NCBI GenBank assembly: GCA_018825385.1
Contig: JAHJEX010000006.1
Span: 186-64,185, forward strand
Source: Patescibacteria group bacterium
GTDB taxonomy: Bacteria > Patescibacteriota > Patescibacteriia > UM-FILTER-42-10
Length of the DNA: 64,000 bases
Direction: 5' to 3'
The notes under the pieces are model-generated. The model was not told where the DNA came from and did not search any database. It saw nothing but the letters and a program-made list of their open reading frames with translations. Position numbers and translations under genes: made by a program. Positions 5,848-46,395 of the stretch are shown one piece after another; position 1 is the stretch's first letter, and each line of letters opens with the position of its first letter.

Positions 5848-7428
5848 ATGAAGAAAAAAAACAAAAAATCATTGATAGCAGCTTCCCTGAAGGCAAGTAA
5901 GGTAGCTGTTTTTTGTTTAATTGTAGCGGGTTTTGGCATAGTTGGAGGGATTATCACCCCAAATGTGTTTGCAGCTGTTTGGCAATCTCCAACCGTCACT
6001 CCTCCTGATTTCCCTGCAGAATTAGAACCTCCACTAAACACATCCGTATTTGTCCAAGAAAAGAAGGGCGGTCTTAGTGTAGCAACTCTAGACGGTAGTT
6101 TAGGTGTGGGAACAACAGTTGTGGGCACAAACAAGCTATATGTGAATGGTACTACTTATTTAGAAGGAAATGTCGGTATCGATGGGACTTTGAGTGTTTC
6201 AGCAACGGCAAGCGTTTTAGATTTACTGACTAACAGTGCAACAGTAGCCAATGATTTGAATGTTAATAGCGGATTGCTTAGCGTAAATAGCAGTAGTAAT
6301 TCTATTTTTATAAATGCCATAAATGATTTTGGGATAGTAAACATTGCTGCGGGAGATGAGTCAGGAATATTTGCAAAAAACAATTCTAGCAGTAACGCAG
6401 CTATACAAGGGGTTAACAATTCTTTGCTAGGAGGCACTGGTGTTTATGGATATGGTCAAGAATATGGTATATGGGGGGTCTCTTCTACAAAATACGGCGT
6501 GTTAGCTGATGCAAGAGATTTTGGAGCAGGAGGATTATATGCAAGAGGAGGAGACACTCGCTACGGAGCTGTTGGCCGGGGATTATATGGAGTTATAGGT
6601 TTGGATAATACAGAAGATGTTAATAACCCCACATTCAATGGTCCTGCTGAAACTCTAGCCGGATTGTTTGAGGGGTCTGTTGAAATAGTGCCAAGTGCCG
6701 GAGGAAATGCAGACTTGACTGTTAACAGTGATACGTTTGTTGTTGACTCTTCTACAAATAGAGTAGGAATTGGCACAAATAGTCCAATTGTTGCACTTCA
6801 TACCATAGGTGTTAGTGACCAATCAGCCGTTTACGCTCAGGCGGGAACAAACACAATGTGGCAAGATTATGATGGTCCCACTGCAACGGTGGCCGGTATA
6901 TATGGTGAAGGAGGAACTGTTACCTATGATGGTGCTGGAACAGGTTGGAATTTTGGCGTGTTTGGTAAGGCAGGTGATCCGGGGTCAGGAAGATCTGTAG
7001 GGATTATGGGATCCGATTTCAATGGAGTCGGCGATACATATGCCGGATGGTTTGATGGCAAAGTTGAAGTTGAAGGACAGGTGTCTGTCAGTGGTAAATT
7101 AAGCACCTTATCCAGTTTAGAAGTTGCTGGAGATATGGTTGGATACGGTGGTTTAAATCTCACTGGTGATATTGATATTTATGGAGATATCACATATTTA
7201 GGGAAACTAAGAATGGACGGCGGACTTCTGGTAATGCAAGGCGGAACGACATGTGATGTTGGACCTGACAACTATGCTGAAGGTACTATGTTTGTGTGTC
7301 ATTTCTGCCCAACCCCAACAGGACAGCGTAAGCATTCAGTAATGGCGAGAATGAATGGAGTATGGATCGATATTGGGTATACATTAGGGGATGCTTGTAA
7401 TGCTGGTCCTTATGTACCAGAAACATAG
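5848..7428 (+). CDS. secreted Gly/Asn/Thr-rich beta-repeat protein, paralog 1 (tail-fibre/adhesin-like)
   Basis: Signal peptide ending VFA|AVWQSP. Repeats LYVNGTTYLEGN, NRVGIGTNSP. C-terminal CxxC (VCHFCP). Roughly 60-70% identity to paralog 2, including near-identical nucleotide stretches. Confidence 0.75.
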   Translation: MKKKNKKSLIAASLKASKVAVFCLIVAGFGIVGGIITPNVFAAVWQSPTVTPPDFPAELEPPLNTSVFVQEKKGGLSVATLDGSLGVGTTVVGTNKLYVNGTTYLEGNVGIDGTLSVSATASVLDLLTNSATVANDLNVNSGLLSVNSSSNSIFINAINDFGIVNIAAGDESGIFAKNNSSSNAAIQGVNNSLLGGTGVYGYGQEYGIWGVSSTKYGVLADARDFGAGGLYARGGDTRYGAVGRGLYGVIGLDNTEDVNNPTFNGPAETLAGLFEGSVEIVPSAGGNADLTVNSDTFVVDSSTNRVGIGTNSPIVALHTIGVSDQSAVYAQAGTNTMWQDYDGPTATVAGIYGEGGTVTYDGAGTGWNFGVFGKAGDPGSGRSVGIMGSDFNGVGDTYAGWFDGKVEVEGQVSVSGKLSTLSSLEVAGDMVGYGGLNLTGDIDIYGDITYLGKLRMDGGLLVMQGGTTCDVGPDNYAEGTMFVCHFCPTPTGQRKHSVMARMNGVWIDIGYTLGDACNAGPYVPET

Positions 7429-7438
7429 AAAGATTTAA

Positions 7439-9010
7439 ATGAAAGAAGCACTTAAAAAGTTTAATAAAACAGCAACTATCAGTGTTTGCATTGCTCTATT
7501 ATGTCTTATTGCTGGATTCGGTGTGAATATTGTAATAGCGGCTACTTGGCAGGACCCAGCCGTAGCACCTCCTCATTTAGGCAGTTTGGAACCCGTTCTT
7601 AATACATCTCTATATGCTCAGGAGAAAATAGGGGGGCTTAATATAGCAACTCAAGACGGTAGTCTGGGTGTGGGTACTACAGTAGTGGGCACAAACAAAC
7701 TGTATGTGGGGGGCACTACTTTTTTGGAAGGAAATGCGGATATTAATGGCGATCTGAGTGTTTCAGCATCAACAAACGTTTTAGATTTACTGACTGACAG
7801 TGCAACAGTAGCCAATGATTTGAATGTTCATGGTGGCTTATTGAATGTTGATAGTGCAACTAATTCCATCTTTATTAACAGTATAAATAATTCAGGTTTG
7901 CTAAATGTAGAAGCAGAAGATGGATCAGGAATAGTTGCTATTAATAATTCTAACAGTAATGCAGCCATACAGGGAGTTAATGATTCTGTGGTAGGAGGGA
8001 CAGGCATTTATGGATATGGCTTGGAGTATGGAATATCCTCACGTAGTAGCACAGGATACGGGATCCTAGCAGATGCAAAGGATACTGGAATAGGGGGTGT
8101 ATTTGCAAGAGGAAGAGATACTGGTTATGGACTTATTGCTAGAGGATCGTACGGAGTTGTGGGGTTTGATAATACAGAAAACATAGACAACCCTGTTTTT
8201 AGCGGTCCTGGCACAACACTGGCAGGATTATTTGAAGGTTCTGTAGACATAATTCCAAGCGCTGGAGGAAATGCAGATTTGGGAGTAAATGCAAATACGC
8301 TTTTTGTAAGTTCTTTTACTGACAAAGTTGGAGTTGGTACAGGCAACCCTGCTACCAAACTACATATTTGGGGAGCAAGCGACCTTTCAGCAACGTATGC
8401 GAAGGCAGGGGTAAATACTGCAGTAGCGGAATATGATGGTCCCACTGCAACGGTGGCCGGTATATATGGCGAAGGAGGAACTGTTACCTATAGTGGCTCA
8501 GGAACGGGTTGGGATTTTGGCGTGTTTGGCAAGGCAGGTAACCCGGGGGTAGGCAGATCAGTGGGAGTGATGGGAGTAGAAGATGGAGGAGGTAGTGACC
8601 AAACTTTTGCAGGCTGGTTTGATGGAGATTTGATAATAGGTGATTCACTAGAAACGGGTGAATATACTTCAGCGGGTGAACTGGAAATTGCTGGTGATAT
8701 GATTGGGAATGGTGATCTCAGTCTTACGGGTAATATTGTCGGGCAAGAGGATATCGCGTATTTTGGGAAGCTAAAAATGACCGGGGGGCTTCCGTTTATA
8801 CATGGTAGATTATTTACATGTGATCTGGCTCCGACAAATTATGCTGAAGGTACTATGTATGTTTGTGCCTGGTGCCCTTCTCTAGAGGCAAGTCGTTTCT
8901 TTGCACTAAAGGTGCGTATGAATAGAACTTGGGTAACTCTTGGCTACACGAAAGGAGGTCGCTGTAGTGGATCTTACGACCCTGAAGTCCCGGTTGACTC
9001 GCTACCATAG
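7439..9010 (+). CDS. secreted Gly-rich beta-repeat protein, paralog 2
   Basis: Same architecture as 5848-7428. Shares IAATWQDP, LYVGGTTFLEGN, DGPTATVAGIYGEGGTVTY, VCAWCP. Confidence 0.75.
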   Translation: MKEALKKFNKTATISVCIALLCLIAGFGVNIVIAATWQDPAVAPPHLGSLEPVLNTSLYAQEKIGGLNIATQDGSLGVGTTVVGTNKLYVGGTTFLEGNADINGDLSVSASTNVLDLLTDSATVANDLNVHGGLLNVDSATNSIFINSINNSGLLNVEAEDGSGIVAINNSNSNAAIQGVNDSVVGGTGIYGYGLEYGISSRSSTGYGILADAKDTGIGGVFARGRDTGYGLIARGSYGVVGFDNTENIDNPVFSGPGTTLAGLFEGSVDIIPSAGGNADLGVNANTLFVSSFTDKVGVGTGNPATKLHIWGASDLSATYAKAGVNTAVAEYDGPTATVAGIYGEGGTVTYSGSGTGWDFGVFGKAGNPGVGRSVGVMGVEDGGGSDQTFAGWFDGDLIIGDSLETGEYTSAGELEIAGDMIGNGDLSLTGNIVGQEDIAYFGKLKMTGGLPFIHGRLFTCDLAPTNYAEGTMYVCAWCPSLEASRFFALKVRMNRTWVTLGYTKGGRCSGSYDPEVPVDSLP

Positions 9011-9037
9011 AATTACAAAACTTAAGGATAAATAATT

Positions 9038-10549
9038 ATGAGAAAAATGATTACCAAACTAAATAAAACAGCAATTATCAGTGTTAGCATTGCAGTATTA
9101 AGTTTGGCGGTTGGTCTGGGGGTGAATATGGTATTTGCCGCCTGGACCACCCCTTCGGAATCCCCTCCGGGGGGTGATATTGCCGCTCCGATCAATGTTT
9201 CAGGTGCGGACCAAGGCAAAATTGGAGGCCTTCGATTGGGAAGTAGTAATTTACCACCTGCGCCGTATATGCTTTATGTTGATGGGGATGTGTTTGTGGA
9301 AGGGAGCATAGTACCCGGTTCAGCCGGCAGTTACACCATCGGAAATGAAACGGTGGGTTCTTGGGATGAACTTTGGCTGAATTCCGATGCTGACGGAGGA
9401 ATATTGGAAAATGGTATTCACTTCGCCGATCCTTCTGTTGGTATTAGGTATGATACGGCGAATAACAGATTTGATTTTTATAAGGATTCAGTTGTACTTT
9501 CAATAGGCGATAATGGCGATCTAAATACAGTGGGAGGTATTACTGCCGCAGGCGGGATGAATATTGATTCTAATACTTTGGTTGTAAATAATGCGAATAA
9601 CAGAGTTGGTGTTGGCACGGCTTCGCCTACTTATGCACTGGACATTGATTCCGGAGACATGAGTATTGCAAACGGCCGTCTTGTTATTGGTTCGCCGACA
9701 TTTCCTGATGCAGATTCAACACTTTATGTCGGAACCTCAGCAAATCCTGTTTCAACAGTTAGAGCAATAGCGGCCTATACTGACAAGGATACTCCTGAAG
9801 GCGCAGTATCAACAATCTATGGAAATAACATGGGAAATAACTGGAAAGCGGCGGTTGAAGGGGAGTCACATTTTGGTTATGGGATACTTGGAATAACTGA
9901 ATCTGGCGGCAGGGCAGGAGTGATCGGATTCAATTATGGTTACAGGCGACAAGGTGAAGCTGGTGAGCCAGTTGGAACTGATTTTGCTGCCGCGACAAAA
10001 GGGAGGAGTTGTGTGGATTCAAGTTGTGACGGTTTTGGCAGCGGTTGGTATGGTAGTACTACCGCAGCCAGACCTATCAGAGCTACAGGTGTATTTGGGG
10101 AAGGTTCTCATACAGATCTTTCCCAGGGTTATATTTATACATATGGCGTTTATGCAATGGCGGGGCGTGCCAGTGCCGGTTCAAGTTCCGAGCATATTTA
10201 TACATATGGACTTTATGCTACTGAAGGGGCAGAAACAAATGGCGGTGTGAGTTATGCAGGGTATTTTGCGGGCGACGTGCATGTAGAGGGCAATTTAACC
10301 ACAGATGCAGGATCCAGTGTTGGGATTGGTACGACAGAATTAACGGATGCCCTGCGTGTCGGAGGCAATTTACGGGTGGATAGTGAAGATACAGATCCTG
10401 CCTATTTGCAAATGGATACAAGAAGTGGAGCACCTGTTATCGCTGATTGTGATGCTGCAGATGAAATTGGAAGAATGGTTTTTGATACGAATAGCAATCT
10501 TTTGTATGTGTGCGATGATAGCGGATGGCTATCTGCTACACTCAACTGA
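9038..10549 (+). CDS. secreted Gly-rich beta-repeat protein, paralog 3 (divergent)
   Basis: Same N-terminal signal and AAWTTPSESPP start. NRVGVGTASPTYALDIDSG motif. Different C-terminus (CDAADEIGRMVFDTNSNLLYVCDDSGW). Confidence 0.7.
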   Translation: MRKMITKLNKTAIISVSIAVLSLAVGLGVNMVFAAWTTPSESPPGGDIAAPINVSGADQGKIGGLRLGSSNLPPAPYMLYVDGDVFVEGSIVPGSAGSYTIGNETVGSWDELWLNSDADGGILENGIHFADPSVGIRYDTANNRFDFYKDSVVLSIGDNGDLNTVGGITAAGGMNIDSNTLVVNNANNRVGVGTASPTYALDIDSGDMSIANGRLVIGSPTFPDADSTLYVGTSANPVSTVRAIAAYTDKDTPEGAVSTIYGNNMGNNWKAAVEGESHFGYGILGITESGGRAGVIGFNYGYRRQGEAGEPVGTDFAAATKGRSCVDSSCDGFGSGWYGSTTAARPIRATGVFGEGSHTDLSQGYIYTYGVYAMAGRASAGSSSEHIYTYGLYATEGAETNGGVSYAGYFAGDVHVEGNLTTDAGSSVGIGTTELTDALRVGGNLRVDSEDTDPAYLQMDTRSGAPVIADCDAADEIGRMVFDTNSNLLYVCDDSGWLSATLN

Positions 10550-10570
10550 TTGTCTTAGTGAATAGTAATT

Positions 10571-12826
10571 ATGCAAAAACACAAAAAGAAATTAGTCATT
10601 TTCAGTACGGGGGTTTTTCTCTTAGTGTTAGTTGTTGTAGCGATCTTTAACATAACAAAGGTATCTGCGGATCAACCGCCTTGGGATGAAACAAATGTTT
10701 CCGGCTGGAACTGGTCGGGAATTGCAACCGAAAATAGTGCGCCAGGCGTTCCTGAATTCACTCACATCGGCTGGTTTAGCAATAACTGTTACAACTATTT
10801 TTCTACAGGCATGGAAAGCCGTTGTGGTGCTGACTTTGGAGTTAGAGTTGATCCCGTCACAGGCAACATTTCAGGTTATAGCTGGAATGGGATATTAGAT
10901 GACTCTGGTGCTGTAACAGGTGTTGGCTGGCTGGACTTTGACCCTCAACCTTTTCCTGGGCCACCATACTACGAAGCAAGAATTGAACCAGTTGGTTCAA
11001 CTTATGAAGGTCAAGTTTCAGGCTGGGCACGCATCAAATCAATAAAAGAACAGGGAGAATACCTAGGGTACGAAGATTGGGGATGGATTCTGTTAGGACC
11101 GGAGCCAGGTCCAAACCGCCAGTTCGGAGTAAATATAAACTCTACGACTGTGTCAGGATACGCATGGGCAGGCGGATATCTGGCTGGCGACCAATTACTT
11201 CCCGACCCTTATGAGAATGTTACTACCGGCTTGGGCTGGATCTCATTTGATACTGGCGATGCAAGTTATATTCTACCTGGTGAATTAGGTGAATTATCAG
11301 GTCATGCCTGGATGGGAAATTCTGATTCACTTGACCCGTCTTTTGACGCCAATATCGGCTGGGTTTCACTAAATTGTGGATCTGGTGGAACTACTGGGGA
11401 AGATATTTGTAAAGACACAAGTTACAAAGTACTTGTCAATAATTCAACGGGGGAAATATCTGGGTATGCTTGGATCGGAGAATCATCAGATGGTAATCCG
11501 ATTGGCTGGATAAATTTTGATCCTAATCCATATCCGGCAGGTCCAAACTATTCAGCAAAAGTTTTTTTAGAACAACAAACTGCAATCGACGATCCGTATG
11601 GTACCTATCAAAAGGGTGATGTAGTCGGATGGGCCCGACTAGTTTCATTAAAAAAAGAAGGAGCAAAGGGACATTTTGAAAATTGGGGCTGGGTAAAAAT
11701 GCATACAAGCGGTACTGAAGTTGAATACGGAGTATCCATGGATACTGATTCAGGGATTTTTGATGGATATGCTTGGTCAGGCGGGGGTACTGTATGTGTG
11801 GGCGCAGTATGTTATGATAACAGTGTGGGTTTAGGATGGATTTCCTTTCAGGACTATAGTGGTGTAAGTCAATTGCCACCGACCTACGTTGCACCGTTCC
11901 TAGAAACGGTGCAAGGGGACATTTATTCTAAAGTTGGGGTTGGATCTGGGGAAATATTCAGTCTTCCTACAAGCCCTTTGACTTCAGAGCTTTTCTATAA
12001 TTCGACCTTTTTAATACAGTCTGGTGGTGATATTGAACGCTATTCCAGTGAAAATGTTTCTGCTGATGATATTGAAGATTATTGGCGGAATTACCCCGAA
12101 TCTTTTGAACCTCCACTGGCTACTAACAAATATACAAATGTAATGGGCAAATTGGATGTTGACGGAATTACTTTTTCTGAGCAAGTATCCGCCGGTATTT
12201 TTGAAAATAAGTTTGGGACTATTGTTGAGGAATATTCAGGGGACACTTCAATAGAGGATTTATGGTTAGATGGTCTTTCTAAACTGCAGGGCAAGGTATA
12301 TTATATTCATGAGGGCGACCTCACCATAAATATACCAATGATAATTGATAATGGTAATGATGTTACTAATGATATTGCCTCAGGCACATTTATTGTTGAC
12401 GGCGACATGTTTATTGAAAAAGACATCACCTATGATTCACTCATTGTTGGAGAAAGTTATGTTGAGTTGGAAGATATTCCATCAGTTGTATGGATAGTAA
12501 AAGGAAATGTATATGTGAGTCCAAATGTGGCGGAAGTAGTGGGAAGTTTCGTAGTAGTTGGTAAAGAAAAAGACGGTGCATTAGAAGCTGGAACTGGTGA
12601 ATTTTATTCAGGAGCTGGAGATGTGAATTTAATAGTAAATGGATTGGTAGTCGCACATGAACTGTTCTTGCAAAGATCGGGAATTGGCACAGTCGAAAAT
12701 ATACAGGCCTCAGAGAGTATCTTCTATGATGGTAGGATAATCATTAATACACCGCCCGGGGTTGGAGATTTTGCAAAAGCACTACCTGTTGTCAGGGAAG
12801 TGGCGCCAATAGAGATTAGTCCATAA
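10571..12826 (+). CDS. large secreted protein with at least 8 copies of a novel G[YH]AW...GW[IL][SN]FD repeat and a C-terminal beta-rich domain
   Basis: N-terminal TM/signal. Repeats SGYSWNG...GVGWLDFDP, SGYAWAGG...GLGWISFDT, SGHAWMGN...IGWVSLNC, SGYAWIGE...IGWINFDP, DGYAWSGG...GLGWISFQD, interleaved with VSGWARI...WGW modules. Confidence 0.7.
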   Translation: MQKHKKKLVIFSTGVFLLVLVVVAIFNITKVSADQPPWDETNVSGWNWSGIATENSAPGVPEFTHIGWFSNNCYNYFSTGMESRCGADFGVRVDPVTGNISGYSWNGILDDSGAVTGVGWLDFDPQPFPGPPYYEARIEPVGSTYEGQVSGWARIKSIKEQGEYLGYEDWGWILLGPEPGPNRQFGVNINSTTVSGYAWAGGYLAGDQLLPDPYENVTTGLGWISFDTGDASYILPGELGELSGHAWMGNSDSLDPSFDANIGWVSLNCGSGGTTGEDICKDTSYKVLVNNSTGEISGYAWIGESSDGNPIGWINFDPNPYPAGPNYSAKVFLEQQTAIDDPYGTYQKGDVVGWARLVSLKKEGAKGHFENWGWVKMHTSGTEVEYGVSMDTDSGIFDGYAWSGGGTVCVGAVCYDNSVGLGWISFQDYSGVSQLPPTYVAPFLETVQGDIYSKVGVGSGEIFSLPTSPLTSELFYNSTFLIQSGGDIERYSSENVSADDIEDYWRNYPESFEPPLATNKYTNVMGKLDVDGITFSEQVSAGIFENKFGTIVEEYSGDTSIEDLWLDGLSKLQGKVYYIHEGDLTINIPMIIDNGNDVTNDIASGTFIVDGDMFIEKDITYDSLIVGESYVELEDIPSVVWIVKGNVYVSPNVAEVVGSFVVVGKEKDGALEAGTGEFYSGAGDVNLIVNGLVVAHELFLQRSGIGTVENIQASESIFYDGRIIINTPPGVGDFAKALPVVREVAPIEISP

Positions 12827-21459: not shown

Positions 21460-21924
21460 ATGAGAAACAAAAAAGGTTTTACATTAATCGAGTTGTTAGT
21501 TGTTATCGCAATTATTGGTCTTTTAGCCACAATTGCAGTAGTAGCATTAAACAGCGCAAGAACAAGTTCACGAGATGCTAAGAGGATTGCTGATGTCCGA
21601 CAGGTACAAACCGGGTTGGAGTTATATTTTAACGCCGAAACGGATTACCCAACTTGTACTACAGCTGCTACCGTCGCGAGTTTGGACGGTGCTGGTTGCG
21701 CCGATGGGATAACAACTTACGTTTCTGGAATCTCCAATGTTTATGATCCCTCGGGTGATGCAACTACCGCTGCTTGTCTTGTCGATGCTACCGGTACGTG
21801 TAACTATTCTTATCAAGGAGTTGCGGAGGGAGACAGCTATACCATTTTATTCTGGCTCGAAGGTGATTCCGGATCATTGACAGGAGGAGAGATTCATACA
21901 GCGAGTGACGCAGGTATACTTTAA
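21460..21924 (+). CDS. pilA: type IV major pilin (prepilin with class III signal peptide)
   Basis: MRNKKG|FTLIELLVVIAIIGLLATIAV is a canonical prepilin cleavage/methylation motif. 154 aa. Cys pairs in the C-terminal half. Confidence 0.9.
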   Translation: MRNKKGFTLIELLVVIAIIGLLATIAVVALNSARTSSRDAKRIADVRQVQTGLELYFNAETDYPTCTTAATVASLDGAGCADGITTYVSGISNVYDPSGDATTAACLVDATGTCNYSYQGVAEGDSYTILFWLEGDSGSLTGGEIHTASDAGIL

Positions 21925-42064: not shown

Positions 42065-42192
42065 CTTGACAGTATAATCCTGTTGGTTTATTATTCAGTC
42101 TAACGATAAAGAGATGCAAAACATTATTTCAAAAATTAAACTAATTATTTCCAGAACCTCTGGCTAGTTTTGCATTAAATAGATATCAATGA

Positions 42193-42217
42193 AACTAGCC
42201 GAAAGGCTAGTTTTTTG
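42193..42217 (+). terminator. rho-independent terminator after ndk
   Basis: AACTAGCC-gaaa-GGCTAGTT followed by TTTTTT. Confidence 0.65.
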
Positions 42218-42429
42218 AAACTCATGAACTACAAATCAAATCTCATTATTAATAACATTGCTATCATCATCTATTGTAGATGAGAGGTTTGGTTATAAAT
42301 TCAGCAGAAAACATTTCAACAAACCAGCCTCTCAAAAGCTGGTTCTTTGTTTATCCGAGGAAGTTTGATGATTGATTAGAGAATTCAAATTTTGAATTAT
42401 CCAACGAGTTATCAAAAAAGACTCGAATT

Positions 42430-42801
42430 TTGTACCTTAAATTGCCAGAAGCAATCCTCTCTGGCGTAACTACCTACTTCAACAAGCGAGAAACAATAAA
42501 GCAAGGACATTGTCATCGCAAAAAGTGTCTAGCTTGTCCTAATCAGTTCAAAAAAAAGGGGGGGGTGATTGATGTGCGATCAAGTCAAGCTGATGATGGA
42601 GTAAAACGGGGACAGATAAACCATGATGAACGCATTTGTCCTGAGACACTATTCGGTGCTTTCTATGACATTGAGTGTGAACGTTGGAGATGTTGTAAAT
42701 GCAGGCTGTCATTGAGCAACTGCGTTTGTCTTGAGCTTGTTGCTCAAAAGGATCAACTCGAAGACTTGGGAGGGAATGAGAATGAACGAGACAGCAGTTA
42801 A
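42430..42801 (+). CDS. Cys-rich small protein (10 Cys), no ATG start, contains an A8G8 homopolymer tract
   Basis: The ORF has no in-frame ATG, so a TTG/GTG start is required. HCHRKKCLACP and CERWRCCKCRLSLSNCVC motifs. Local GC is higher than the genome average. Confidence 0.4.
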   Translation: MYLKLPEAILSGVTTYFNKRETIKQGHCHRKKCLACPNQFKKKGGVIDVRSSQADDGVKRGQINHDERICPETLFGAFYDIECERWRCCKCRLSLSNCVCLELVAQKDQLEDLGGNENERDSS

Positions 42802-43189
42802 CCTGAATCATCAGGATGTTCTTTGTCCGAATGGCGTTATGCTAATGGACAGTGGACAATGCAAGTGTGTTGATTGTGGATTGCAACCCAGCATTTGCTG
42901 TTGTCCGCTGAAGCCTGAAATCACTGTGATCGAACTGGATGGGGAGTTCGATATGACCGGTGGAGGCTATACTGCTATTGACGGCTGGGGTTACAGCAGA
43001 AAGCCGCGTGTAGGCTTGGTCTGCCAAAACGGCGTAGTCATCCAAGACGGTGAACCGCGCTGTATTGACTGCGAACTTACTCCCGATACCTGCTGTTGTC
43101 CTGACAAACCCATTGTGACTTTCGTGGACATCGGTGATCATTACCTCATGACTCCCAATTTTCACGCTGGCGATGACATAGCTATGTAA
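42775..43189 (+). CDS. Cys-rich protein with internal duplication of a ~45-aa C-x-N-G-V...C-x-D-C-x-L-x-P-x-x-CCCP-x-KP module
   Basis: Strong SD GGAGGG lies 5 nt before the ATG at 42775 (the reported ORF extends to 42731). Two aligned repeats: LCPNGVMLMDSGQCKCVDCGLQPSICCCPLKP and VCQNGVVIQDGEPRCIDCELTPDTCCCPDKP. Confidence 0.55.
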
Positions 43190-43531
43190 TGCCAGCATAT
43201 TTGCATCTTTAGCCCAAGATTAAATCAAATCAAGGGCTTTTTTTATTATATTTGACGTAATTTTTTTCTGTGGTACTATTAAATATAATTATGAAATACA
43301 CAATTAACCACAGTTCAATAATCCAAAAGACCGTTGCCACGGGTAGCTTTGGTTTCTTTTTTGGTTATTTTAACCCTCGAACTGATGGCTGATTAGTGCA
43401 TTTCTAAATATATCACTTCAAGTATAAGCCATCAGTAAGATGGTTTTTTTGATATATTTATAGCTCTTTATTATCAAAATCAATCAATAGTAGACTACTT
43501 CATTCCCCAACCAAGGACAAAGGAGAGGATA

Positions 43532-43714
43532 ATGCAGAAAAAGAATCCTAACCAAGGAACAAACGGATCTGATCAGGACAATGAACAGCAAGGAAAGAAG
43601 CCTGTGTTTCGGCAGTCACGGCGCCAACGGTCCAGAAAAGAGTATCGTCCCTATTTTGTGAGAAGTCCCGGCCTGCCCACTGTACAAACAGAGGGCTCAG
43701 AAGAAACGGAATAG
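43532..43714 (+). CDS. small highly basic disordered protein
   Basis: Strong SD AAAGGAGAGG before the ATG. Arg/Lys/Gln-rich 60-aa ORF. Higher local GC. Confidence 0.45.
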   Translation: MQKKNPNQGTNGSDQDNEQQGKKPVFRQSRRQRSRKEYRPYFVRSPGLPTVQTEGSEETE

Positions 43715-43740
43715 TGTTCTTCCATCAGGAGGCAAGACCA

Positions 43741-43893
43741 TGTTTGGAGAGGCTCCAAAAGGAGATACAGTAAAGAGGAAAACGCAAGTGAATAAAACGG
43801 GTCAGAAGGATTTGCAAATTGGCAAATATGCTCTGGCCGTTACGGGATGCGGAATGGTATTTGTCGAAAAAAAAGCAGAACCCAAGAAGTAGC
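43741..43893 (+). CDS. small (50-aa) Lys-rich protein, below the ORF-track size cutoff
   Basis: SD AGGAGG lies 7 nt upstream of the ATG at 43741. MFGEAPKGDTVKRKTQVNKTGQKDLQIGKYALAVTGCGMVFVEKKAEPKK. Followed by a hairpin plus T7 (about 43905-43940). Confidence 0.4.
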
Positions 43894-43962
43894 GTACACA
43901 ATGATTTTGGCTAAGGCTCCATAATATCCAGGGGCCTTTTTTTATTACAACATATTAATAAC

Positions 43963-43992
43963 TTGCCAAAAAATATATCGAAGGGATATACT
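43963..43992 (+). promoter_or_regulatory. candidate promoter TTGCCA-N18-TATACT
   Basis: Hexamer match read from the sequence. No obvious downstream gene for ~240 nt. Confidence 0.3.
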
Positions 43993-44233
43993 TAAAGTGC
44001 TCTACTGTTAGGGTCTAGCTTAATCCAGTTCTACAGGATTATCGCATTGAGAGCCCTAAATTACTATTTTCTGAGGAATCTAGTTGCGGGCACCAAATTT
44101 TATATGGGAGCTATGCGATTATCTAGTCCTTACTGGTAGGGCATTCAATATTTACTCATCATTTGTGATATCTGACGATGAGATATAAAAAACATTTACA
44201 ATAAGAGAAAAGGAAAACAATATTATCCATTTC

Positions 44234-44548
44234 TTGATACTTAGTGAGTGTTCAGAAAGCAAGAAATGTGATATAATAAAATCAATCTTAGTATTAGTGA
44301 TTCACCTTATGCTTTACAAAGATGAACTTCTAAATGCAATAAAAGCATCTGTCGAATTTGAGGACAACTTCATAGTCTCCTTTAGTAATTTTATGAATTC
44401 TGAAATAAATGCAGTAGATTTTGATCCTAAAACAAAGAAAGAGGTCATAAAAATATTTCAGTATCTAAAAGATGATTCATCAAAGCACAAAAAAATTCTT
44501 GAAGAGGTTGAAGAATTGATAATTAATAATCAGAAAGATGAATACTAA
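44234..44548 (+). CDS. small hypothetical protein with E...KHxxxLEE motif (possible half of a split four-helix-bundle/ferritin-like protein)
   Basis: EFEDNF and DDSSKHKKILEEVEE spacing is reminiscent of a diiron-site E/ExxH pair. Very tentative. Confidence 0.35.
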   Translation: MILSECSESKKCDIIKSILVLVIHLMLYKDELLNAIKASVEFEDNFIVSFSNFMNSEINAVDFDPKTKKEVIKIFQYLKDDSSKHKKILEEVEELIINNQKDEY

Positions 44549-44768
44549 TATTGTTAAAGTCATTCAGAGGACATTTACCTTTCAAAGACTAGAGAAAGAT
44601 GCGGAAAAAATGTATTTTGATATAGTCTCACAGATAAGCGATGAGAAAATTATTTCTACTCTGACTAGTATTATGCAAGATGAGCAAAAACATTATAAAG
44701 CTTGCTCAAAAATTCTAGAGATTTTTAAACAGGAGTATCCTGAAGAATACATGGAAGCGAAAATATAG
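44538..44768 (+). CDS. small hypothetical protein with E...EQKHY motif, overlaps upstream ORF by 11 nt
   Basis: LEKDAEKMYFDI...MQDEQKHYKACSKILE. The overlap suggests translational coupling with 44234-44548. Confidence 0.35.
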   Translation: MNTNIVKVIQRTFTFQRLEKDAEKMYFDIVSQISDEKIISTLTSIMQDEQKHYKACSKILEIFKQEYPEEYMEAKI

Positions 44769-44823
44769 TGGTTTTTTCTTTAAGAAAAAGTAGCTTTAGT
44801 GCTCCTGAAGAATACAAGAAAGC

Positions 44824-44852
44824 AAACGCTCCGAAAACTCAGAGCGTTTTTG
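44824..44852. terminator. bidirectional hairpin terminator between convergent genes
   Basis: AAACGCTC-cgaaaactca-GAGCGTTT followed by TTTTG. The minus-strand reading also ends in a U-rich tract. Confidence 0.5.
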
Positions 44853-44854
44853 AA

Positions 44855-46150
44855 TTACTTCACCTCCAGCTTGCCGTCCAGAAATTCTTCGTATCCTTTG
44901 AGATCTAGGAATCCATTACCACTAATGTTGATAAGAATGGTCTTTTTTGTTCCATTCTTTTTACATTGCAATGCTTCATCAATGGCGCCCTTTATAGCGT
45001 GGGCTGATTCTGGAGCAGGTAATATACCTTCAGTTTGGGTGAAGATCTTTGCTGCTTTCATAATATCACTTTGTTTAGCGGACATAGTTTCTATATATCC
45101 CTTTTCCACCAAATGACTGACAAGTGGTGCAGCACCATGATAACGCAATCCACCAGCTTGAATCTTAGGAGGAATAAAGTCAGAACCTAAGGAATGCATT
45201 TTGAATAGTGGCGTGGTTTCCGCGGTATCACCAAAATCATATTTGTATTCTCCCTTAGTGAGAGTTGGGCATGATTCAGGCTCAACTGCTACAACACGTA
45301 CTTTCTTCTTTTTAGTAATTACGTCTCCAATGAATGGAAAGGCAATCCCAGATAGATTACTTCCTCCGCCGAAGCAACCATAGATCACATCAGGATATTC
45401 ATCATCTTTCTCTAACTGCAGTTTAGCCTCTTGTCCAATAATTGTCTGATGAAGTAGAACGTGATTAAGTACACTTCCTAAGGAATATTTTATTGTACCG
45501 TCTGATACTTTCTCCATAGCTTCGCTAATAGCAATACCCAGACTTCCCGGATGGTTAATATCCTCTTTCAAGAATTTCCTTCCAATGTTTGTTTGATTAC
45601 TCGGAGAGGGGAGTACCTCGGCGTCGAACATTCTCATATAACTAACTCTATATGGTTTTTGTTTGTAGTGTAGTCGGACATAGAATACTAAACACTTCAT
45701 GTCAAAGAATTTTGTTGCAAGCGAGAGTGCCATGCCCCATTGACCAGCTCCAGTCTCAGTAGTGATTGTTTTCGTGCCTTCTTGTTTATTGTAGTAGGCT
45801 TGAGCAAGAGCGGTATTCAACTTATGACTTCCAGTTAGAGAAGCACCTTCATATTTGTAATATATTTTTGCGGGTGTCCCTAAGTGTTTTTCTAATCTTG
45901 TGGCTCGGTAAAGAGGGGTTGCTCTATATCTCTTATAGATTTCCATTACCTCATCAGGTATCTCTATTCTTTTTTCTTGACTTACTTCCTGCTCTATTAA
46001 TGCTTTAGGGAACAATGGTTTAAGCATTTCCGGTCCGATCGGTTCATTGGTTTCTGGGTTAAGAGGAGGTGGTGGTGACTCGGGAAGGTCAGAAATAATA
46101 TTGTAGTAATGAGTAGGTATTTCTTTATCTGATAGTGATATTTTTGTCAT
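44855..46150 (-). CDS. trpB: stand-alone tryptophan synthase beta chain-like PLP enzyme (TrpB2 type)
   Basis: PLP-lysine motif SLTGSHKLNTALAQA. GGGSN-type glycine loop CFGGGSNLSG. 431 aa. No adjacent trpA. Confidence 0.85.
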   Translation of the reverse strand: MTKISLSDKEIPTHYYNIISDLPESPPPPLNPETNEPIGPEMLKPLFPKALIEQEVSQEKRIEIPDEVMEIYKRYRATPLYRATRLEKHLGTPAKIYYKYEGASLTGSHKLNTALAQAYYNKQEGTKTITTETGAGQWGMALSLATKFFDMKCLVFYVRLHYKQKPYRVSYMRMFDAEVLPSPSNQTNIGRKFLKEDINHPGSLGIAISEAMEKVSDGTIKYSLGSVLNHVLLHQTIIGQEAKLQLEKDDEYPDVIYGCFGGGSNLSGIAFPFIGDVITKKKKVRVVAVEPESCPTLTKGEYKYDFGDTAETTPLFKMHSLGSDFIPPKIQAGGLRYHGAAPLVSHLVEKGYIETMSAKQSDIMKAAKIFTQTEGILPAPESAHAIKGAIDEALQCKKNGTKKTILINISGNGFLDLKGYEEFLDGKLEVK

Positions 46151-46395
46151 TGTAATTTAGTTAATATTAATTAGTCATTGATTTTGTACAATCAACGCCA
46201 GATAAATGTTCCAAGATTTTTGAAATAATAGCGCATATTTTTGTAATTAAAAAACCGCCTGGTGAAAGCGGATAAATACACGAAAAAATTATCAGCTTTC
46301 TAGAGGCGATTTATGTTCCACCAATTAATTACTGTTTGTGTGGTTTTCATTTGCTCAAAGATAGCACAGAATATTACTGAGTGTCAAATATCAGG

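Follow-up and report, generated by a model that had tools for sequence, protein, structure and literature searches.

Predicted leader-peptide attenuators upstream of orphan Cys-rich small-protein operons in a narrow clade of Patescibacteria

We analyzed a stretch of 64,000 nucleotides (nt) on contig JAHJEX010000006.1 of a Patescibacteria group bacterium, a genome of low guanine-plus-cytosine (GC) content, and refer to this whole stretch as the window (mean GC, 0.371). Between ndk and a trpB2-like gene, the window carries a cassette of four small open reading frames (ORFs), A to D, the first two of which encode Cys-rich proteins. Comparative sequence analysis and structure prediction lean modestly toward the reading that this cassette is a vertically inherited, lineage-specific pair of operons in a narrow Patescibacteria clade, that both operons are controlled by transcription attenuators, and that they are induced by amino acid starvation. 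The AT-rich stretches that seemed noncoding appear to consist of conserved promoters and leader ORFs with alternative RNA pairings. Our comparison covers the genome of the window (W) and five relatives (L001, L004, L006, L010, and L012), which are independently assembled Patescibacteria metagenome-assembled genomes.

The control region of unit 1, which precedes ORFs A and B, starts immediately downstream of ndk, and its first approximately 300 nt are more conserved than the cassette genes themselves. Promoter P1 has a -35 element that is invariant in the six genomes, as is the larger part of its -10 element. The P1 transcript would pass two tandem Ile leaders (..LIIS.. and ..IIIxx-stop) before reaching A and B. 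Leader ORF L1 contains 5 to 7 Ile among its 17 residues, has the same length, frame, and stop in all six genomes, and varies synonymously at its Leu codon (CTA, TTG, or CTG). Its stop codon, TAG, is located within the predicted antiterminator strand GGCTAGTTTT (42161-42170). Terminator T1 is predicted at -12.9 to -14.2 kcal/mol in the six genomes, versus -10.7 to -12.3 kcal/mol for the antiterminator, and the whole leader 1 fold has a z-score of -5.7. The corresponding values for leader 2 are -9.8 to -15.0 kcal/mol for the antiterminator versus -10.2 to -12.8 kcal/mol for terminator T2. The T2 stem shows a compensatory change, with AACCAGC/GCTGGTT in the window versus AACCGGC/GCCGGTT in relatives, and positions 42243 to 42352 match the Rfam family Thr_leader below threshold. 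According to the model, a ribosome at the leader stop would mask the antiterminator strand, so that T1 and T2 form. A ribosome stalled at the Ile codons would instead allow the antiterminator to form, and transcription would continue into ORFs A and B. Two more hairpins lie between T2 and ORF A (42353-42440), one of which (CGAGT...ACTCG, then TTTTGT) is kept in relatives; they may represent an extra termination or processing signal.

Unit 2 would follow the same logic of 1:2, 2:3, and 3:4 pairings, in this case from promoter P2 through a single leader that ends in FFFGYF and controls ORFs C and D. The leader ORF L3 reads MKYSINxSS...FFFGYFTH* in relatives, and its stop is positioned at the antiterminator strand CTGATGGCT (43382-43390), whose pairing is predicted at -11.7 to -15.1 kcal/mol in the six genomes. 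The long 1:2 hairpin of L3 reaches -42 to -52 kcal/mol, and its internal stem covaries, with CAC/GTG in L012 versus TGC/GCA elsewhere. Together, the two units suggest that stalling at Ile or Phe codons would be the signal that is sensed. In four relatives, L001 (6470-6575), L006, L010, and L012, arrays of direct and inverted GTAATT/AATTAC motifs, absent from the window, are found upstream of the C-D promoter. They lie between the terminator of ORF B and P2 and could be a regulator binding array. Downstream of the cassette, a conserved structured RNA of approximately 150 nt (43963-44150, plus strand; 7250-7450 in L004) possesses its own promoter (TTGCCA-18-TATACT, 43963-43992). It is conserved above its surroundings, has an RNAalifold energy of -48 kcal/mol, and produced no Rfam match at an E value of 1 or below; in relatives it stands directly 5' of tRNA-Pro(GGG).

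The three leaders share the structural hallmarks of ribosome-mediated attenuation. Each contains a short ORF, predicted to be translated, with consecutive codons of the kind that could stall a ribosome (II in L1, III in L2, and FFFGYF in L3), and L1 to L3 keep frame, length, and stop position across the six genomes. Intrinsic terminators with a T-run (T1, T2, and T5; -9 to -14 kcal/mol) are conserved ahead of the structural genes. A mutually exclusive 2:3 pairing with an energy of -10 to -15 kcal/mol, similar to that of the terminators, is predicted for all three leaders in all six genomes, in each of which a further upstream strand can sequester the antiterminator strand by 1:2 pairing. The position of the leader stop, in or next to strand 2, would make the antiterminator dependent on ribosome position. 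Genes of the cognate pathway were not recognized among A to D; only a fourth leader, with a Trp-Trp pair, is followed by such a gene, the trpB2-like gene. The tandem TGG codons of this leader (46323-46318) are invariant in the four genomes W, L001, L004, and L006, its N-terminal half varies freely, and the 5' arm of its terminator is made of the last leader codons. Its predicted features are those of a textbook Trp leader, and the gene that it precedes encodes a Trp-forming enzyme; it serves as an internal positive control and indicates that this clade does use leader-peptide attenuation. We scanned all intergenic regions of the window for a short ATG-initiated ORF that contains the same residue twice in a row and has a hairpin and T-run behind it, upstream of a gene on the same strand. 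Exactly four elements emerged from this unbiased scan, namely the Trp leader and the three cassette leaders L1 to L3. Between the Trp-leader terminator and the start of the trpB2-like gene, there is a second small ORF rich in aromatic residues, MRYYFKNLGTFIWR.

Coordinates of the cassette genes and of the predicted control elements in the window (aa, amino acids; pI, isoelectric point; SD, Shine-Dalgarno)
Feature	Position	Strand	Description
Promoter P1	42066..42094	+	TTGACA-17-TATTAT; directly after the ndk stop; 11/12 consensus match
Leader ORF L1	42114..42167	+	MQNIISKIKLIISRTSG; 17 codons, Ile-Ile at codons 11-12
Terminator T1	42192..42216	+	AAACTAGCC-GAAA-GGCTAGTTTTTT; 5' arm can pair instead with 42161-42170
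Leader ORF L2	42224..42283	+	MNYKSNLIINNIAIIIYCR; 18-19 codons, invariant Ile-Ile-Ile 2-3 codons before the stop
Terminator T2	42320..42352	+	AACCAGC...GCTGGTT, then CTTTGTTT; antiterminator partner GAGAGGTTTGGTT (42283-42295)
ORF A	42574..42801	+	75 aa from GTG (likely start), 7 Cys, one C-x2-C-x6-C-x-C module
ORF B	42782..43189	+	135 aa, 13 Cys, two module copies
Terminator T3	43211..43245	+	After ORF B; hairpin of -10.4 kcal/mol, then T7; kept in relatives
Promoter P2	43252..43279	+	TTGACG-16-TACTAT with upstream TG; -35 TTGAC invariant in 6 genomes
Leader ORF L3	43291..43392	+	MKYTINHSSIIQKTVATGSFGFFFGYFNPRTDG; Phe/Tyr run FFFGYF, internal hairpin
Terminator T5	43425..43452	+	AGCCATCAG-TAA-GATGGTTTTTTT; 5' arm pairs alternatively with 43382-43390
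ORF C	43532..43714	+	60 aa, pI 9.9, core KPxF...R-x-YRPYFVxxPGLP
ORF D	43740..43892	+	50 aa, pI 9.8; conserved part is the C-terminal Y-x-LA-x-TGCGMVF(L/V) alone
Terminator T6	43913..43945	+	After ORF D; hairpin of -12.7 kcal/mol, then T7; conserved
Trp leader element	46249..46387	-	Promoter, leader ORF MKTTQTVINWWNINRL (46350-46300, 16 codons), and terminator; upstream of the trpB2-like gene (44855-46150)

The distribution of the cassette points to inheritance within the clade. A preliminary description of this region had proposed that it was acquired horizontally, from a phage or from the host of a symbiont, and had named homologs in the same context in related genomes as evidence that would speak against this. 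Such homologs are present in five other genomes. The order ligA, gatC, gatA, response regulator gene, ndk, cassette, and trpB2-like gene is shared by W and its five relatives, where an approximately 600-nt gap after ndk is followed by a Cys-rich gene, two small ORFs, and the PALP (trpB2-like) gene on the opposite strand. Since this synteny is common to independent assemblies, a chimeric assembly, also considered in the preliminary description, is excluded. ORF B has six database relatives of 55 to 65% identity, all from metagenome assemblies named "Patescibacteria group bacterium," and no ORF B homolog outside the Patescibacteria clade was found in the database or in a profile search of 1.84 billion proteins. 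Scanning one genome per species (185,579 species) located the cassette in two loci. The metagenome scan, suggested earlier as a way to find the cassette in other bins, located three loci, two of which are the same contigs as in the species scan, and the scan of viral contigs revealed none. Flanking direct repeats, mobility genes, and an integrase were not found at the cassette, nor were mobile relatives, and in all six related genomes recovered it occupies the same locus, rather than occurring patchily or in differing contexts. Shared context, together with the lack of viral loci, mobility genes, and repeats, argues against recent horizontal acquisition. It is possible that acquisition took place before the clade diverged.

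The surroundings of the cassette are more variable. In L001, a small GIY-YIG-like ORF (7553-7804) is inserted between the cassette and tRNA-Pro, and an 836-amino-acid P-type cation ATPase is encoded at this locus in L001, L006, and L010 and not in W. These differences mark the ndk-trpB2 interval as a variable zone around a fixed cassette. The tRNA-Pro(GGG) gene follows the cassette in L001 (7813-7889), L004 (7463-7539), and L006 (7518-7594), and the window is devoid of any tRNA gene. In W, its place (region 43893-44854) is taken by two ORFs (44234-44548 and 44538-44768) with a GC content of 0.27 to 0.30 and a faint similarity to ferritin-like and DUF455 proteins.

The cassette genes nevertheless deviate from the rest of the window in composition. 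The GC content of ORFs B, C, and D is 43 to 49%, versus a window mean of 37%. In 300-nt windows (standard deviation, 0.048; 99th percentile, 0.487), GC peaks at 0.50 to 0.51 over positions 42800 to 43199 and at 0.47 to 0.48 over positions 43500 to 43899, so that the profile is indeed nonuniform in the sliding-window and codon-usage computation, with the ORF B peak above the 99th percentile. A rise to about 48% against about 35% elsewhere, noted previously for 42430 to 43900, is thus real over two coding patches but does not extend to the full interval, which has a GC content of only 0.429, because its GC-rich patches (A plus B, 0.463; C plus D, 0.463) flank the AT-rich spacer 43190-43531 (0.316). 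The excess resides at synonymous sites: GC at third codon positions (GC3) is 0.50 in B, 0.46 in C, 0.41 in D, and 0.35 in A, versus 0.21 to 0.38 in all other genes of the window and a background of 0.29. None of the 135-codon windows of 55 background genes reached the GC3 of B (mean, 0.288; standard deviation, 0.042; maximum, 0.40), and the P values are approximately 0.002 for C and 0.04 for D. The leaders inside the cassette are AT-rich (GC, 0.30 to 0.32), which ties the effect to coding sequence and not to a regional mutation bias. One other part of the window, 5848-12826, is GC-rich as well. There the excess comes from the first and second codon positions, with ordinary GC3 (0.28 to 0.32), and is therefore different in kind. 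This part comprises four successive large ORFs (503 to 751 amino acids; overall GC, 0.42 to 0.46) without Pfam match, located upstream of pilM-like genes, which may encode pilus-associated or surface proteins.

The deviation is shared by the relatives. In these, whose loci have approximately 41% GC, GC3 is 0.58 to 0.63 in B and 0.45 to 0.64 in D and in A2, a paralog of A, versus 0.32 to 0.45 in flanking genes; across all genomes, B ranges from 0.50 to 0.63 and the flanks from 0.28 to 0.45. Synonymous divergence (dS) of the flanking genes gatA, ndk, and response regulator is saturated (dS above 1 or undefined). An anomaly common to all relatives despite this saturation has been maintained and is not the fading trace of an import. 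Likewise, the synonymous sites of B have turned over (dS, 0.8 to 3), yet its GC3 is high, so that some force presumably keeps it high.

Translation initiation signals set the cassette apart in the same way. We calculated SD strength as pairing energy to the canonical anti-SD sequence ACCUCCUUA and obtained -11.7 kcal/mol for A (GTG at 42574), -10.7 kcal/mol for B (ATG at 42782), -8.7 kcal/mol for C, and -10.3 kcal/mol for D. The median of the 57 other genes is +0.1 kcal/mol, and energies of -8 kcal/mol or below occur in 4 of these 57 versus all 4 cassette genes (Fisher P = 1.3e-4). The earlier observation of strong SD sites at three of the four ORFs therefore extends to the fourth. The sites read AAGGGGGG for A, AAAGGAGAGG for C, and AGGAGG for D, and in relatives GGAGG-type sites again precede A2, C, and D, whereas flanking genes mostly lack them. 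ORF A had been described as a 123-residue protein with 10 Cys and without an ATG start. An ORF of this length does exist from a TTG codon (42430-42801), but its first approximately 48 codons are not conserved, and conservation in relatives is confined to the last approximately 60 residues. GTG 42574 is thus the likely start, which would yield 75 residues with 7 Cys. Similarly, the supposed 138-residue product of ORF B does consist of a two-module repeat, but is 135 residues long from ATG 42782, or 137 residues from ATG 42776, with 13 Cys; the second ATG is the most probable start, because SD spacing is proper there. The SD region of ORF A is formed, in this genome only, by an A8G8 homopolymer pair (42550-42565), of a slippage-prone kind, and slippage could vary ORF A expression. 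The strongest SD of the window (AGGGAGGTG, -12.6 kcal/mol) belongs to a pilin-like type IV gene with an N_methyl motif (21460-21924), with raised GC (0.44) and near-normal GC3 (0.34).

The codon usage and SD strength of the cassette may together form a regime of its own. The codon shift touches every degeneracy class, including the two-fold NNY boxes, in which C-ending codons rise from 0.24 to 0.40 in the W cassette and, in relatives, from 0.25 to 0.52. Codons ending in A are disfavored, with TTA dropping from 0.26 to 0, and the share of Ile decreases by half (8.6% to 4.4%). We read the GC-ending codons and strong SD sites as a selected translation regime specific to the cassette. In the weakest step of the proposal, this regime might allow the messages to be translated even if the A/T-ending codons in common use are starved. 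High-expression codon bias was rejected as a cause, given that tuf, fusA, and the genes for ribosomal proteins lack the shift. In two divergent genomes (W, 42782-43189, z = -3.6; L004, 6001-6408, z = -3.7), the mRNA of ORF B is folded significantly more stably than its dinucleotide-shuffled versions, and its consensus hairpin joins CP(D/N)G codons to CCP(E/D) codons via the palindrome TCCGGA, with weak covariation; the C-D mRNA shows no folding excess (z = -0.25). Selection on mRNA structure is a possible cause of the high GC3 of B and, for the codon and SD anomaly as a whole, an alternative next to an ancient foreign origin and exchange within the clade.

ORF B is clearly coding and under purifying selection, as judged from differences of 0.27, 0.24, and 0.57 at codon positions 1, 2, and 3 and a ratio of nonsynonymous to synonymous divergence (dN/dS) of approximately 0.1 to 0.2. 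The dominance of third-position substitutions, this ratio, and the lack of an Rfam match at threshold led us to reject a noncoding RNA in its place. An antisense ORF (42842-43198) was also discarded; it lies in the codon-for-codon frame, where the avoidance of TTA, CTA, and TCA in B is enough to keep it open, which makes it a by-product. ORF C (dN/dS, 0.2 to 0.6; core also written as R-x-YRPYFVGxPGLP) is probably coding, and ORF D is weakly supported as a coding gene, having a weak coding signal and a dN/dS of 0.6 to 0.95 in some pairs. Of the two small proteins previously described as basic, C and D both fit this in W, but D is not basic in relatives.

The two Cys-rich proteins are built from a module of roughly 45 residues, present once in A and in the 55-residue paralog A2 and twice in B, whose halves are 43% identical to each other (BLASTP E = 3e-13). 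Relatives carry A, A2, or both. ORFs A and B share 20 nt, at the 3' end of A and the start of B, and the A C-terminus FGAFYDxExxKWRCKxCRLSLxNCxC is kept in L001, L004, and L010. In B, the module reads C-P/x-x-G-V...C-x2-C-x-L-x-P-x2-CCCP-x-K/x-P. Alignment of 18 modules (A, A2, and both B halves) revealed four invariant Cys with the spacing C-x2-C-x6-C-x-C, of which the "CCCP" highlighted in the preliminary description is the C-x-C end. That this motif could not be placed in a known family holds: A, B, C, D, and A2 had no significant match in Pfam, NCBIfam, PHROGs, or PADLOC, and PDB sequence searches with profiles of the family and of the module found none. Echoes of WYL_2 (E = 0.09) and NuoI (E = 0.15) were discounted. 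The profile search of 1.84 billion representative proteins returned only the family itself plus two artefacts, P0007 and P0008, giant perfect-tandem-repeat proteins that we rejected as homologs because their scores reflect accumulation over repeats. Word-index searches with ORF A and the module profile recovered clade members only. By these searches, the Cys-rich family is an orphan whose module lies outside described families. Two AlphaFold runs gave predicted local distance difference test (pLDDT) values of 43 and 50, the second with module 1 near 72 and a local maximum of 73. The low-confidence models suggest beta hairpins around Cys turns, and a Foldseek search of the PDB with them yielded no match below E = 1. 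As its Cys pattern suggests, the module most likely adopts a small fold that resembles a zinc ribbon and binds metal, and proteins with the module would accordingly bind metal. The cassette proteins might act as starvation-response factors that bind a partner such as the ribosome, RNA polymerase, or a nucleic acid, although our confidence in any biochemical role is low.

Several observations weigh against attenuator-controlled, starvation-induced operons. The leader ORFs lack SD sites, though most window genes lack them as well. Ile (ATT) and Phe (TTT) codons are to be expected in AT-rich sequence, and the FFF codons of L3 coincide with the U-tract after a hairpin. Covariation is thin, with six distinct sequences providing one compensatory pair in T2 and the L3 stem swap. 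Moreover, leader 1 can also fold so that its start codon pairs in a stem with GUUUUGCAU, an arrangement compatible with a small RNA (sRNA) or an element akin to a riboswitch. For none of the four cassette genes was a relation to Ile or Phe metabolism detectable, which sets them apart from the genes behind classical attenuators, and the Phe content of C and D is not reduced. Metal binding is proposed from the Cys pattern, the structural models being of low confidence and without fold match. Finally, the trpB2-like gene is attenuator controlled by prediction yet has no SD site and normal GC3; attenuation alone therefore does not explain the codon and SD anomaly. We considered that the AT-rich stretches might be ordinary terminators or sRNA genes, with A to D expressed constitutively or under other signals. 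This is rather unlikely, in spite of a minimum-energy fold of leader 1 that closes a stem over the whole small ORF (the fold with z = -5.7), a T1 that could just end the ndk transcript, and the unclassified RNA of approximately 150 nt just downstream, which indicates that the locus does encode sRNAs. No promoter-like site was found between T2 and ORF A. The geometry of ORF frame, length, and stop within the antiterminator is kept in six genomes, with invariant III, II, and FFFGYF runs among varying neighboring codons, and the analogous Trp-Trp leader of trpB2 is evidence that the clade possesses the mechanism. Quite improbable, in our view, is a role of A and B in metal homeostasis instead of starvation, as metallothionein-like buffers or as Fe-S or Zn carriers. 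Cys makes up 6.6% of cassette residues versus 0.8% in the background, arranged in CxxC, CxC, CCC, and Cys-Pro motifs, and P-type cation ATPases neighbor the cassette in some relatives. These pumps, however, are of the P2 type (Cation_ATPase_N/C) and not heavy-metal pumps, and they occupy no constant position. A search for a metal-regulator site gave none, and the upstream control elements bear amino acid codon runs; with 9.6% Cys, aromatic residues, and predicted beta strands, B is also unlike metallothioneins. Precursors of ribosomally synthesized and post-translationally modified peptides, or bacteriocin-like precursors, share the small size, Cys richness, clade restriction, and fast evolution of these proteins, but we regard this identity as most improbable: the conserved neighborhood consists of ligA, gatCA, response regulator, ndk, trpB2, and histidine kinase genes and holds no maturase, radical-SAM enzyme, protease, or exporter, and B has no leader/core architecture, its two-module repeat being conserved over the whole length.

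The composition and SD data bear on two further accounts, which concern the origin of the cassette. A recent island from a phage or a symbiont's host would fit the atypical GC and GC3, the strong SD sites, the varying content between ndk and trpB2 among relatives (ATPase, GIY-YIG ORF, presence of A or A2), and the adjacency of the locus to tRNA-Pro(GGG) in relatives. It is hardly tenable for a cassette at the same position in six genomes with saturated flanking dS, an anomaly that persists in all lineages, and neither viral loci, PHROG match, integrase, flanking repeats, nor any homolog outside the clade. More credible, if still improbable, is a single ancient acquisition by the clade ancestor from an SD-using donor of higher GC, with the foreign codon style kept by selection or by exchange among clade members, an account that is compatible with the attenuator model. 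A shift across all degeneracy classes is what a different compositional background would produce, and the dS of C and D is below that of the flanks in some pairs (L004-L010: 0.25 for C versus 2.7 for gatA), which may reflect exchange among clade members or constraint on synonymous sites. On the other side, B kept its high GC3 while its synonymous sites turned over, no donor is known, and AT-rich promoters and leaders of native style are interleaved with the genes.

If two vertically inherited, attenuator-controlled operons are indeed what this locus holds, it shows a known kind of regulation, leader-peptide attenuation, in a new form that controls an orphan protein family. Patescibacteria, or Candidate Phyla Radiation, are mostly uncultured bacteria with reduced genomes that obtain amino acids from hosts. 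For the sensing of shortage in these bacteria, the locus offers a concrete set of sensors (Trp, Ile twice, and Phe) together with orphan outputs, since the four predicted leader-peptide attenuators fall within 4.3 kb. A further possibility, which we put forward tentatively and consider doubtful, is that host-dependent Patescibacteria possess a compact ribosome-sensed starvation regulon, in which Ile and Phe sensors switch on private Cys-rich metal-binding and other small proteins in place of biosynthesis, and that these proteins act on the ribosome, RNA polymerase, or host interaction. The cassette proteins would then have a translation regime of their own, with strong SD sites and GC-ending codons, neither of which the genome otherwise uses. 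Deviating GC3 and SD usage would mark a selected property of a gene set and not a recent import, which advises caution with composition-based island calls in small AT-rich genomes. The C-x2-C-x6-C-x-C/CCCP module is a new candidate for a metal-binding mini-domain.

Compared with known systems, the cassette resembles genomic islands in its atypical composition and codon usage (GC3, 0.41 to 0.50 versus 0.29), its different translation signals, and, in relatives, a variable locus next to a tRNA gene. It differs in being syntenic and present throughout the clade, with no integrase, repeats, or donor, and in maintaining its anomaly over saturated divergence. Zinc ribbons and rubredoxin knuckles share with the module its short length, four invariant Cys, tandem duplication, and a predicted beta hairpin with Cys-Pro-x-Gly and C-x2-C-Gly turns. 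The spacing C-x2-C-x6-C-x-C, with CCC in ORF B, departs from the two CxxC knuckles of that class, and profiles do not recognize it (pLDDT, 50 overall). Metallothioneins typically contain more than 15% Cys, few or no aromatic residues, and no regular secondary structure; B, at its lower Cys content, includes F, Y, and W. Starvation-tuned codon usage, which is linked to selective charging of tRNA isoacceptors, is paralleled by cassette genes that are predicted to be expressed under limitation and use genome-rare codons, with the difference that the shift in the cassette also affects two-fold NNY boxes. Such boxes are normally read by a single tRNA, so that isoacceptor choice is not the whole explanation. 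The general idea that non-optimal codons favor translation during amino acid starvation is supported (PMC5066624).

The closest parallel to the cassette leaders is provided by attenuators of enterobacteria, although no Rfam family matched them at threshold and a limited literature collection contained no account of attenuation by leader peptides in Candidate Phyla Radiation bacteria. In enterobacterial attenuators such as trpL, pheL/pheM, ilvL, and thrL, a short ORF with a run of codons for one amino acid near its end precedes an intrinsic terminator and a mutually exclusive antiterminator, the 5' strand of which lies at the leader stop. The cassette leaders share the codon run, the terminator, and the antiterminator at the stop, and leader 2 is the one with the weak Thr_leader match. 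L3, ending in FFFGYFTH*, resembles pheM (..FRFFFYFST*), and the Trp leader, with WW followed by five codons and the stop, resembles trpL. In contrast to the enterobacterial systems, the leaders described here belong to a Patescibacteria lineage, two Ile leaders stand in tandem, and the Ile and Phe leaders precede genes for small orphan proteins, not for biosynthetic enzymes or tRNA synthetases.

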